From assembly GCF_003334315.1 (NCBI RefSeq), contig NZ_QOWR01000046.1: 38,030 nt of DNA; one strand, given 5' to 3'. Both the position numbers and the translations under genes were made by a program. The notes beneath the pieces are model-generated. The model did not search any database and was not told the DNA's origin. It worked only from the letters and a program-made list of their open reading frames with translations. Below are positions 1-34,152 of this stretch, in pieces. The first letter of the stretch is position 1. Every line of letters starts with the position of its first letter. Source of the stretch: Escherichia coli (GTDB lineage Bacteria > Pseudomonadota > Gammaproteobacteria > Enterobacterales > Enterobacteriaceae).

Positions 1-375
1 GACGAACAGTGGGGCTACGTCGGTGCTAAATCACGTCAGCGCTGGCTGTTTTACGCGTATGACAGGATACGGAGGACAGTTGTGGCGCACGTTTTCGGTG
101 AACGCACTATGGCGACGCTGGGGCGTCTTATGAGCCTGCTGTCACCCTTTGACGTGGTGATATGGATGACGGATGGCTGGCCGCTGTATGAATCCCGCCT
201 GAAGGGAAAGCTGCACGTAATCAGCAAGCGATATACGCAGCGAATTGAGCGGCATAACCTGAATCTGAGGCAGCACCTGGCACGGCTGGGACGGAAGTCG
301 CTGTCGTTCTCAAAATCGGTGGAGCTGCATGACAAAGTCATCGGGCATTATCTGAACATAAAACACTATCAATAA
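1..375 (+). CDS. insB: IS1 transposase InsB, C-terminal part (5' truncated by window edge)
   Basis: Open frame from base 1 to stop at 373-375; recognised InsB sequence; ORF track 82..375 is the same frame. Confidence 0.88.
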
Positions 376-390
376 GTTGGAGTCATTACC
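1..390 (+). mobile_element. IS1 insertion sequence, 3' portion (element begins upstream of the window); right terminal inverted repeat ends ...GGAGTCATTACC at 390
   Basis: Frame-1 translation from base 1 ([21 protein letters not shown]...HYLNIKHYQ*) is the C-terminal part of IS1 InsB; 379-390 is the characteristic IS1 end; flanking sequence switches abruptly to elaB. Confidence 0.9.
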
Positions 391-588
391 GTTGAGCTGA
401 AAGCGCGTGCAGAAAAAGCGCTGGATGATGTGAAAAAACGGGTTAGCCAGGCTTCAGACAGTTATTACTATCGGGCGAAGCAGGCAGTTTATCGTGCTGA
501 TGACTACGTCCACGAAAAACCCTGGCAAGGAATTGGTGTGGGCGCGGCCGTTGGGCTGGTACTAGGACTGTTGCTGGCACGCCGTTAA
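391..588 (+). pseudogene. elaB: elaB 3' fragment (ribosome-associated tail-anchored inner membrane protein), interrupted by IS1
   Basis: In-frame translation from 391 gives VELKARAEKALDDVKKRVSQASDSYYYRAKQAVYRADDYVHEKPWQGIGVGAAVGLVLGLLLARR*, the C-terminal ~65 residues of ElaB including its transmembrane anchor; no start codon or N-terminus. Confidence 0.8.
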
Positions 589-601
589 AACCTCCCTACA
601 C

Positions 602-632
602 CGGGGTACTGCATTTTTTTTGTAGTACCCCG
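602..632 (+). terminator. 12-bp stem hairpin with a T7 loop (cggggtactgca-ttttttt-tgtagtaccccg) downstream of elaB
   Basis: Inverted repeat read directly from the sequence, one G-U wobble; no U-tract after the stem, so intrinsic terminator function is uncertain. Confidence 0.35.
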
Positions 633-638
633 TATAAT
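633..638 (+). promoter_or_regulatory. Candidate -10 hexamer TATAAT upstream of menF
   Basis: Perfect TATAAT 29 nt upstream of the menF GTG start; -35 not confidently identified. Confidence 0.3.
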
Positions 639-666
639 GTGAGGCTTTTAACAGGGAGAGGTCCGC

Positions 667-1962
667 GTGCAATCACTTACTACGGCGCTGGAAAATCTAC
701 TGCGCCATTTGTCGCAAGAGATTCCGGCGACACCCGGCATTCGGGTTATCGATATTCCTTTCCCTCTCAAAGACGCTTTTGATGCCTTGAGCTGGCTGGC
801 CAGTCAGCAAACATACCCGCAATTCTACTGGCAACAACGTAATGGTGATGAAGAAGCTGTCGTCCTGGGCGCGATTACCCGTTTTACGTCGTTGGACCAG
901 GCACAACGTTTTCTTCGCCAGCACCCGGAACACGCCGACTTACGCATTTGGGGGCTGAATGCTTTTGACCCGTCGCAGGGCAATTTACTTTTACCCCGCC
1001 TGGAATGGCGACGCTGTGGCGGTAAAGCCACGCTGCGGCTGACGCTATTCAGCGAAAGCTCCCTTCAGCACGATGCGATTCAGGCAAAAGAATTTATCGC
1101 CACACTGGTGAGTATCAAGCCCTTGCCTGGGTTACATTTAACCACCACGCGAGAACAACACTGGCCGGACAAAACGGGCTGGACGCAATTAATCGAACTG
1201 GCAACGAAAACCATCGCCGAAGGTGAGCTCGACAAAGTGGTGCTCGCTCGGGCAACTGACCTGCATTTCGCAAGTCCGGTCAACGCGGCGGCGATGATGG
1301 CTGCCAGTCGTCGACTGAATCTGAATTGCTACCATTTTTACATGGCCTTTGATGGCGAAAATGCTTTTCTTGGCTCTTCACCGGAACGGTTATGGCGGCG
1401 GCGTGACAAAGCGCTGCGTACTGAAGCGCTGGCGGGAACAGTAGCAAATAATCCTGATGATAAGCAGGCGCAGCAGTTAGGAGAGTGGCTGATGGCGGAT
1501 GATAAAAACCAGCGCGAGAACATGCTGGTGGTGGAAGATATCTGTCAACGATTACAGGCCGATACCCAGACGCTGGATGTTTTACCGCCGCAGGTACTGC
1601 GTCTGCGTAAAGTGCAGCATCTTCGCCGCTGTATCTGGACTTCACTCAACAAAGCGGATGATGTGATCTGTTTACATCAGTTGCAGCCAACGGCAGCAGT
1701 TGCTGGCTTACCGCGCGATCTGGCGCGACAGTTTATCGCCCGTCACGAACCGTTCACCCGAGAATGGTACGCCGGTTCTGCGGGCTATCTCTCATTACAA
1801 CAAAGCGAATTCTGCGTTTCCCTGCGCTCAGCAAAAATTAGCGGCAATGTCGTGCGATTATATGCTGGCGCGGGCATTGTCCGTGGTTCCGACCCCGAGC
1901 AAGAGTGGCAGGAAATCGACAACAAAGCGGCAGGGCTGCGTACTTTATTACAAATGGAATAG
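667..1962 (+). CDS. menF: Isochorismate synthase (menaquinone-specific)
   Basis: 431-aa ORF, GTG start preceded by GGGAGAGG; chorismate-binding family sequence recognised as MenF. Confidence 0.93.
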
Positions 1963-2050
1963 TAATGAGTCGCATCATTACCGATTCATATCAATAATCT
2001 ATTTTTGTAGCTCCTTATACTTAGCCGCAATATTGATACCGGACAAACTC

Positions 2051-3721
2051 ATGTCAGTAAGCGCATTTAACCGACGCTGGGCGGCGGTCATTCTGGAAGC
2101 ATTAACGCGTCACGGCGTCAGACACATCTGTATCGCCCCAGGCTCGCGTTCTACACCGTTAACGTTAGCGGCGGCGGAGAATTCCGCATTCATTCACCAC
2201 ACCCATTTCGATGAGCGTGGGTTGGGGCATCTGGCGCTGGGGCTGGCGAAAGTCAGCAAGCAGCCGGTGGCGGTGATTGTGACCTCCGGCACGGCGGTGG
2301 CAAATCTCTATCCGGCACTGATTGAAGCCGGGTTAACCGGAGAAAAACTGATTCTCTTAACCGCCGATCGCCCGCCGGAGCTAATTGACTGCGGCGCGAA
2401 TCAGGCAATTCGCCAGCCGGGAATGTTCGCCTCTCACCCCACGCACAGTATTTCATTGCCGCGCCCGACCCAGGATATCCCCGCACGTTGGCTGGTTTCT
2501 ACCATCGACCACGCTCTCGGTACGCTTCATGCGGGGGGAGTCCATATCAACTGCCCGTTTGCTGAACCGCTGTATGGCGAAATGGACGATACCGGGCTTA
2601 GCTGGCAACAGCGTCTGGGTGACTGGTGGCAGGACGACAAACCGTGGCTGCGTGAAGCGCCTCGTCTGGAAAGTGAAAAACAGCGCGACTGGTTCTTCTG
2701 GCGACAAAAGCGCGGCGTGGTGGTTGCCGGGCGCATGAGTGCGGAAGAGGGCAAAAAAGTTGCCCTGTGGGCGCAAACTCTTGGCTGGCCGCTGATTGGC
2801 GATGTGCTGTCACAAACCGGGCAGCCGCTGCCGTGTGCCGATCTTTGGTTAGGCAATGCCAAAGCGACCAGCGAGCTGCAGCAGGCGCAAATTGTGGTGC
2901 AACTGGGAAGCAGCCTGACGGGGAAACGGCTCCTGCAATGGCAGGCAAGCTGTGAACCAGAAGAGTACTGGATTGTTGATGACATTGAAGGGCGACTTGA
3001 TCCGGCACACCATCGCGGACGTCGCTTAATTGCCAATATTGCCGACTGGCTGGAGCTGCATCCGGCAGAAAAACGCCAGCCCTGGTGCGTTGAAATCCCG
3101 CGCCTGGCGGAACAGGCAATGCAGGCGGTTATTGCCCGCCGTGATGCGTTTGGCGAAGCGCAACTGGCGCATCGCATCAGCGACTATCTGCCTGAACAGG
3201 GGCAATTGTTTGTTGGTAACAGCCTGGTGGTACGTCTGATTGATGCGCTTTCGCAACTTCCGGCAGGTTACCCGGTGTACAGCAACCGTGGGGCCAGCGG
3301 TATCGACGGGCTGCTTTCGACCGCCGCCGGCGTTCAGCGGGCAAGCGGCAAACCGACGCTGGCGATTGTGGGCGATCTCTCCGCACTTTACGACCTCAAT
3401 GCGCTGGCGTTATTGCGCCAGGTTTCCGCGCCGCTGGTATTAATTGTGGTGAACAACAACGGCGGGCAAATTTTCTCGCTGCTGCCAACGCCGAAAAGCG
3501 AGCGTGAGCGTTTCTATCTGATGCCGCAAAACGTCCATTTTGAGCACGCCGCCGCGATGTTCGAGCTGAAATATCATCGTCCGCAAAACTGGCAGGAACT
3601 TGAAACGGCATTTGCCGACGCCTGGCGCACGCCAACCACCACGGTGATTGAAATGGTGGTTAACGACACCGATGGTGCGCAAACGCTCCAGCAACTTCTG
3701 GCGCAGGTAAGCCATTTATGA
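2051..3721 (+). CDS. menD: 2-succinyl-5-enolpyruvyl-6-hydroxy-3-cyclohexene-1-carboxylate synthase (ThDP-dependent)
   Basis: 556 aa from ATG at 2051 ([13 protein letters not shown]...); the track ORF 1700..3721 is an upstream in-frame extension overlapping menF. Confidence 0.92.
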
Positions 3722-24552: not shown

Positions 24553-24588
24553 GCAAAAATGCCCGGTAACCACATGCTTACCGGGCAT
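24553..24588 (-). terminator. Rho-independent terminator of glpABC (minus strand: atgcccggtaa-gcatgtgg-ttaccgggcat-TTTTT)
   Basis: 11-bp perfect stem, 8-nt loop, followed by five T on the transcribed strand, 12 nt after the glpC stop. Confidence 0.7.
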
Positions 24589-24599
24589 CAGAAAGGAGT

Positions 24600-33950: not shown

Positions 33951-34152
<202 letters not shown>

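Follow-up and report, generated by a model that had tools for sequence, protein, structure and literature searches.

The spacer between elaB and menF of Escherichia coli carries a 31-nt hairpin that runs directly into the hexamer TATAAT, and we find it probable that these 37 bp hold two transcription signals at once: a leaky, U-tract-poor intrinsic terminator of elaB and, in the A/U tail of that terminator, the −10 box of a −10-only sigma-70-type menF promoter. The element was analyzed in a 38,030-nucleotide stretch of E. coli DNA (hereafter the window), in whose numbering positions are given unless stated otherwise. Both ends, that of the elaB RNA and the start of the menF RNA, are already present in published supplementary tables; we found no paper that describes their shared architecture.

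Direct reading and a repeat finder agree on the hairpin, in which the arms CGGGGTACTGCA and TGTAGTACCCCG form 12 pairs, six of them G-C and one a G-U pair (G611-T623). A preliminary description of this DNA had reported just this arrangement, a 12-bp stem with one G-U pair, a seven-T loop and a 3′ arm running into TATAAT, and had placed it between elaB and menF, where it lies: the elaB stop codon (TAA) occupies 586–588, the stem begins 14 nt 3′ of it, and the menF GTG start is at 667. The whole T-run is eight long (614–621) and the loop seven, because T621 pairs with A613, and TATAAT starts immediately after G632, the last paired base of the hairpin. Coordinates of all features are collected in Table 1.

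Table 1. Features of the elaB-menF region in window coordinates.
Feature	Position	Strand	Remarks
IS1 right part (end of insB; terminal inverted repeat 376–390)	1..390	+	ORF 82–375
elaB 3′ remnant, codons 38–101	391..588	+	translation matches ElaB WP_000070621
Outer repeat, left arm GTTAAAACCTC	584..594	+	MFE fold of 560–700 and per-species folds
Weak upstream alternative hairpin	590..607	+	5 pairs, loop of 8 (terminator scan); shares GGGG of main 5′ arm
5′ arm CGGGGTACTGCA	602..613	+	menF promoter −44 to −33; core GGGTACTG invariant or nearly so in 50 relatives
T7 loop	614..620	+	menF promoter −32 to −26; T615–T617 invariant or nearly invariant
3′ arm TGTAGTACCCCG	621..632	+	doubles as menF promoter spacer, −25 to −14
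TATAAT	633..638	+	probable menF −10 hexamer and A/U-only tail of the elaB terminator
elaB transcript 3′ end	636	+	Term-seq (PMC7815308) and SMRT-Cappable-seq (PMC6131387)
Outer repeat, right arm GAGGCTTTTAAC	641..652	+	C645 bulged; spans menF start site
menF-menD / menF-menD-menH start site	646	+	SMRT-Cappable-seq (PMC6131387)
menF Shine-Dalgarno region AGGGAGAGG	653..661	+	6–14 nt before GTG 667; conserved
menF (isochorismate synthase), GTG start	667..1962	+	

The folding energy, a calculation which the preliminary description had proposed, bears out the stem. RNA of the + strand (596–645) folds at −22.8 kcal/mol, dinucleotide shuffles of it at −10.1 ± 2.5 kcal/mol (z = −5.15; 0/200 shuffles fold as well), and the fold of the hairpin is −21 to −23 kcal/mol overall. 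The − strand RNA folds less stably (−17.9 kcal/mol) because the G-U pair becomes a C-A mismatch. When the 38-kb window was scanned for 12-pair stems (at most one G-U, loop of 3–10), the elaB-menF hairpin was the sole case on the + strand, the number expected from shuffled windows being 0.15 per strand. The sole other 12-pair hairpin in the window lies on the − strand (24558–24589, GCCCGGTAAGC...GGTTACCGGGC followed by ATTTTTG) and is a canonical terminator after glpC, adjoining rpnE, in contrast to the U-less hairpin of elaB. An outer inverted repeat encloses both hairpin and TATAAT in Escherichia spacers only, with one arm across the elaB stop codon and the other across the menF start site; it forms in the minimum free energy fold of 560–700, representing read-through RNA, and in folds made species by species.

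An intrinsic terminator is expected to carry at least about five U in the 8 nt after its stem. The tail here, UAUAAUGU, has four U and is A/U at seven of its eight positions, and a consensus terminator scan did not call the hairpin; the preliminary description was thus correct that the T-run sits in the loop and not after the stem. We then estimated the stability of the RNA:DNA hybrid that the tail would form, using the nearest-neighbor RNA:DNA values reported by Sugimoto et al. 1995. At −6.7 kcal/mol it falls in the weakest 7% of the window's 8-mers, whose mean is −10.4 kcal/mol; eight U would give −1.4 kcal/mol.

Since the window is identical to K-12 MG1655 over 581–680, published K-12 maps can be transferred to it (window position equals 2381310 minus the K-12 coordinate, a rule checked against the annotation). 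Term-seq places a 'primary' elaB 3′ end at K-12 2380674 on the − strand, which is window 636 (Adams et al. 2021, PMC7815308). This end is entered three times in the 3′-end table, apparently once per growth condition, with two scores (54111.6 and 221851) (PMC7815308). RNA ending at this base terminates in ...GUAGUACCCCGUAUA, within the TATAAT hexamer and 4 nt beyond the stem, so that the in vivo end lies within a few nucleotides of the stem, as it should for an intrinsic terminator. The same coordinate was found by SMRT-Cappable-seq as a 'novelTTS' for transcripts from the elaA start site at 2381565 (Yan et al. 2018, PMC6131387). Among 30 reads from that start site in M9, 10 end at the 2380674 TTS and 16 pass through it (16/26 full-length reads; median extension 199 nt), and the operon table accordingly lists elaA-elaB-menF as a read-through variant (PMC6131387). 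The intermediate hybrid energy of the tail fits this intermediate efficiency of 10 stops against 16 read-throughs, and the weak tail fits the remark of the SMRT-Cappable-seq authors that a poorly defined polyU goes with higher read-through (PMC6131387). Coordinate conventions agree across the data sets, the elaA start of the Kim et al. 2012 survey being the same base once shifted by the version offset.

We also looked for the region elsewhere in the literature. Text searches for elaB and menF together returned no paper discussing the elaB-menF intergenic region, and the ROSE supplement had no match for it. In the Cappable-seq supplement, searched with K-12 version 3 coordinates, there was no match among the entries listed.

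The menF start site was then located relative to the hexamer. In the SMRT-Cappable-seq operon table, menF-menD and menF-menD-menH transcripts start at K-12 2380664 on the − strand, which is window 646 (PMC6131387). This is 8 nt after T638, the last T of the hexamer, within the 6–9 nt past a −10 box at which a sigma-70 primary 5′ end is expected, and leaves a leader of 21 nt. The −10 match is complete (TATAAT, 6/6), whereas a −35 (TTGACA, 16–18 bp upstream) is matched at best in 2/6 positions, by TGCATT at 17 bp and CTGCAT at 18 bp. The triplet before TATAAT is CCG, so that a TG extension is absent, and a promoter scan did not flag the site. With the start at 646, the hairpin DNA occupies −44 to −14 of the promoter and the T-run −32 to −25. 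The mapped start base is a T, which is unusual. The site is supported by one data set (PMC6131387); in an older and sparser survey the only 5′ ends assigned to menF lie within elaB, at 553 and 502, and 646 is not listed (Kim et al. 2012, PMC3415461). Those two ends would give menF leaders of 114 and 165 nt (PMC3415461). No obvious −10 box was seen upstream of 553, and both ends may be processing sites. Around the mapped start, GG(T/C)TTTT (643–649) is conserved in nearly all of 72 elaB-menF spacers compared, hairpin-less genera included. A T-run at a transcript start is reminiscent of reiterative initiation sensitive to UTP, or of a translation enhancer rich in U.

These maps support the proposal of the preliminary description that an elaB terminator abuts the menF −10 box: the dominant 3′ end falls 4 nt after the stem and the menF-menD start 8 nt after TATAAT. 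The combination that it had named as contrary evidence, a menF start mapping far from the hexamer together with no 3′ ends near the hairpin, is not what the published K-12 data show.

On the reading we prefer, the 31-nt hairpin would be the 3′-end structure of elaB transcripts, acting as a leaky intrinsic terminator, and the TATAAT after it would be the −10 box of a menF promoter that has no usable −35, both signals lying on the same DNA. We infer that the 3′ end arises without a factor and that the A/U-only −10 hexamer supplies, in place of a U-tract, the weak RNA:DNA hybrid. Part of the polymerases arriving from elaA or elaB would stop on the −10 box, leaving RNA whose 3′ end is 4 nt beyond the stem, and the others, about 60% in M9, would read through into menF, which would also be transcribed from its own start site 8 nt past the hexamer. 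The T-run of the loop would play no part in the elaB terminator. Several observations weigh against this reading, namely the four U in an 8-nt tail, the end at +4, stem mismatches (A624C, A627C) in some E. coli lineages and the absence of 646 from the older survey (PMC3415461); the T start base and the 2/6 match at −35 weigh against the promoter part in particular. The preliminary description had further raised a coupling of elaB termination to menF promoter occlusion. From the geometry this is plausible: terminating polymerases would sit on the menF promoter because the hairpin DNA covers −44 to −14.

To place the element in a wider context, we carried out a MenF scan with one genome per species, which gave 80 loci, and compared 72 distinct elaB-menF spacers. 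In almost all Enterobacteriaceae among the 80 loci elaB lies directly upstream of menF, with spacers mostly of 78–123 nt. The hexamer stands 25–32 nt upstream of the menF start codon in every one of the 72 spacers except that of locus L074 (43 nt), and it reads TATAAT in most of them, TATACT in four and TATAGT in three. The hairpin is kept in 50 spacers, from Escherichia, Citrobacter, Salmonella, Enterobacter, Lelliottia, Kosakonia, Trabulsiella, Intestinirhabdus, Huaxiibacter and Silvania. Its core, GGGTACTG and CAGTACCC, is invariant or nearly so, and core pairing therefore receives no support from covariation. The upper stem and loop are variable, and the upper stem shows compensatory changes; one of its pairs is U-G in 16 cases, A-U in 7, U-A in 5 and C-G in 2. 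The distance from GGGTAC to GTACCC of the invariant core ranges from 13 to 15 nt among relatives. The + strand folds more stably than the − strand in 45/72 spacers (Wilcoxon p = 4e-4, relatedness ignored), an advantage that comes from G-U pairs.

Genera without the E. coli-type hairpin have other structures in its place. Buttiauxella, Cedecea and Shimwellia carry a canonical stem followed by T8–T9, 15 nt before the hexamer, and Atlantibacter and Franconibacter carry other upstream stems without a long T-run. The motif ACC(C/A)CG just before the hexamer is conserved with or without the hairpin, a pattern that suggests a constraint from the promoter on the hexamer-proximal portion of the 3′ arm. 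Judged from sequence comparison, an elaB stem-loop beside the menF −10 box is the conserved design in nearly all genera compared. Within E. coli, the elaB-menF spacer is present in 5422/5426 complete genomes, and the 44-nt hairpin stretch differs from that of the window in about a quarter of E. coli genomes. Common variants with one stem mismatch each are A624C in UTI89 and A627C in HNSQ2209, with folds of about −18 kcal/mol as against −22.8; SCU-115 is listed with these two among the stem-mismatch lineages (window 624/627). Some Enterobacter and Buttiauxella spacers have an extra, highly structured insert of 45–125 nt upstream of the terminator (2289–2501 in locus L052, 2267–2501 in L055 and L075, and 2335–2501 in L056) that leaves the terminator and −10 module untouched and is possibly a small mobile repeat.

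Intrinsic release usually occurs 7–9 nt after the stem, and an end at +4 suggests either trimming after release or another origin. The main rival to the terminator reading takes up the second of these. It holds that the hairpin is a 3′-end protector and that read-through RNA is cut or trimmed back to the stem, giving the end at 636, by RNase E cleaving for example in the A/U-rich GUAUA/AUGU or by 3′-to-5′ trimming by PNPase or RNase II; TATAAT would still be the menF −10 box. We regard this as a genuine but lesser possibility. The hairpin has no U-tract; the end at 636 is closer to the stem than typical release sites, and many polymerases evidently continue, 16/26 full-length reads passing 636 with a median extension of 199 nt (PMC6131387). 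Neither Term-seq nor SMRT-Cappable-seq separates termination from processing, and the Term-seq authors themselves remark, for Rho-dependent ends, that their method cannot tell the two apart (PMC7815308). Yet a GC-rich stem of −21 kcal/mol with a 7/8 A/U tail would not be out of place among weak intrinsic terminators, and the tail hybrid belongs to the weakest 7% of 8-mers. The hairpin-less genera, moreover, have a canonical terminator at the same place, which argues that termination before menF is itself a selected function. A word search of the four supplementary files of the Term-seq paper, which should include its Rho-termination table, found elaB in the 3′-end table only and menF nowhere, and thus no Rho-termination entry for either gene (PMC7815308).

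The preliminary description had offered a protein-binding site as a further option, and this we consider improbable. In its most definite form, the GGGTACTG-N-CAGTACCC palindrome would act chiefly as a DNA operator bound by a dimeric menF regulator, with the LuxR-solo SdiA as the candidate and the RNA hairpin incidental; a protein bound at −44 to −14 would repress. Conservation of both arms as sequence, and not just as pairing, across genera whose MenF proteins are only about 65% identical would suit an operator, as would CTG...CAG dyads, which are typical of lux-type boxes. Part of that sequence constraint is explained without an operator by ACC(C/A)CG, which is kept in hairpin-less genera. 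The core spacing of 13 to 15 nt is not fixed, DNA symmetry is broken by G-U pairs (G611-T623 in the window; CCCT in Trabulsiella), and the element is single-copy in the genome. Lux-type and LexA boxes consist of a CTG-N10-CAG dyad with a fixed N10, and the TrpR operator is GTACT-N8-AGTAC. The window has CTG-N11-TAG (N9 to N11 in relatives) and GTACT-N13-AGTAC (N11 to N13 in relatives), and against these consensuses the hairpin was rejected both as a LexA or lux-type box and as a TrpR operator. As for SdiA, PmenFDHBCE fusions respond to sdiA in Salmonella, where they are activated 1.8–2.7x, and in E. cloacae, where they are repressed 105-fold, but the E. coli fusion is not sdiA-regulated and its palindrome is nearly the same as that of E. 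cloacae (PMC11619404). The binding motif of SdiA is described as unresolved (PMC12086679). That a single 31-bp palindrome is both the RNA terminator of elaB and an SdiA quorum-sensing operator for menaquinone synthesis appears to us slightly less probable again; if true, it would join elaB termination with quorum-sensing control of menaquinone synthesis in one 31-bp element.

Least credible of all is a chance inverted repeat beside a chance TATAAT without function. Stems of 12 pairs are not extremely uncommon, about 0.15 per strand being expected over a length of 38 kb. None of the shuffles, however, reaches the same folding energy, some 50 genomes at species level keep the hairpin, and an RNA 3′ end and a start site map exactly here, so that the idea is already contradicted by mapped ends and conservation (PMC7815308; PMC6131387).

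Other identities were tried and rejected. A dispersed palindromic repeat (REP/BIME, ERIC) was set aside since a search of 5422 E. coli genomes, with an E-value limit as permissive as 10, gave a median of one site of the hairpin element in each. No relevant Rfam family matched at the hairpin, either in window 1–3000 at E <= 10 or in the whole window at gathering threshold. A third candidate was CTCCCT (592–597), which is complementary to the menF Shine-Dalgarno sequence, as an anti-Shine-Dalgarno element. A count over the CTCCCT-SD helix gave a hint of covariation, two-sided changes being found in 18 cells where shuffles had 10.6 ± 2.5. The pairing probabilities led us to reject it as a conserved mechanism. 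The menF SD has an unpaired probability of 0.27 in read-through RNA against 0.32 with the upstream part shuffled (mean rank 0.40), and in Escherichia it is more open than in shuffles.

The T-run enclosed in the loop can be considered through its counterparts in other genera. In the Citrobacter freundii complex, GGGGGTACTG is able to pair either with the downstream arm, giving the T-loop hairpin, or with an upstream copy of its partner, CAGTACTCCC, and the two hairpins compete for the same central arm. The upstream one, CAGTACTCCC-TAAAC-GGGGGTACTG (2421–2455 in L011), has 8–10 pairs (−13.6 to −16.3 kcal/mol) and is separated from the T-run by 0–3 nt, so that it has the form of a canonical terminator; in one homologue 10 pairs are followed by CTTTTTCT. 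E. coli has at this place the weak upstream hairpin of Table 1, which ends 6 nt before the T-run and contains CTCCCT (592–597), a nearly invariant motif. The motif and its weak hairpin may be a remnant of the Citrobacter-type upstream terminator hairpin of 8–10 bp. For E. coli itself we rejected the loop T-run as U-tract of the upstream hairpin, given the five pairs, the 6-nt gap and a Term-seq elaB end only at 636; such a role works in the Citrobacter freundii complex and not in E. coli. The loop T-run of E. coli has the same position as the terminator U-tract of other genera, and it is perhaps most readily understood as a U-tract, now enclosed by a second hairpin, that belonged to an older terminator or belongs to an alternative one. 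It may also be kept by the promoter, in which it lies at −32 to −25.

Compared with known systems, the elaB hairpin shares with Rho-independent terminators, including the canonical one between elaB and menF in Buttiauxella and Cedecea, a GC-rich coding-strand stem-loop soon after the stop codon, a mapped 3′ end just past the stem and partial read-through. It differs from them in having no U-tract, its tail being UAUAAUGU and its sole T-run lying in the loop, and in a read-through of about 60% in M9. Among the leaky 'novel TTS' sites of SMRT-Cappable-seq the elaB site is itself a member (novelTTS 2380674, with the read-through variant elaA-elaB-menF), and neither its structure nor its overlap with the menF promoter is described there (PMC6131387).

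A precedent for overlapping signals is the E. coli frd terminator, which reportedly overlaps the ampC promoter/attenuator, an arrangement attributed to Grundstrom and Jaurin (1982). There, as would be the case here, the signals that end one transcription unit and begin the next in the same direction occupy a common short piece of DNA. The difference is that the last frd gene contains the ampC promoter and that one hairpin, downstream of this promoter, is both frd terminator and ampC attenuator, whereas the elaB hairpin is upstream of the start site, in the −35/spacer region, and its tail would be the −10 box. Transcriptional interference has been modeled as 'sitting duck' interference and as occlusion. 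As in models of promoter occlusion, upstream co-directional polymerases cross a weak downstream promoter, and at menF the geometry suggests that they would also stop on it; the elaB terminator, however, should lessen such interference rather than create it.

If the preferred reading is right, the spacer shows neatly, and in conserved form, how 37 bp can hold two transcription signals. It would account for the presence of menF on two kinds of transcript, its own and the elaA-elaB-menF read-through RNA, and it would offer a natural system for asking whether initiation suffers from polymerases stopped on a −10 box. It also shows why a 3′ end that is real and abundant escapes terminator predictors that require a U-tract. 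The current understanding of termination or of initiation is unchanged by it.

In the strain analyzed the upstream context is altered by IS1, whose 390-nt right part is 100% identical to IS1A/IS1B copies. IS1 interrupts elaB after codon 37, and the elaB promoter and N-terminus are gone; the IS1-elaB junction was seen in 0/5426 complete E. coli genomes, so that the DNA probably derives from a Shigella or from an unusual strain. The hairpin of this IS1-bearing strain would act on transcripts reading out of IS1. Elsewhere in the window, the Rfam family naRNA4 (nucleoid-associated RNA, REP-derived) matches at 34034–34104 on the + strand with 76.4 bits, against a gathering score of 59.5.
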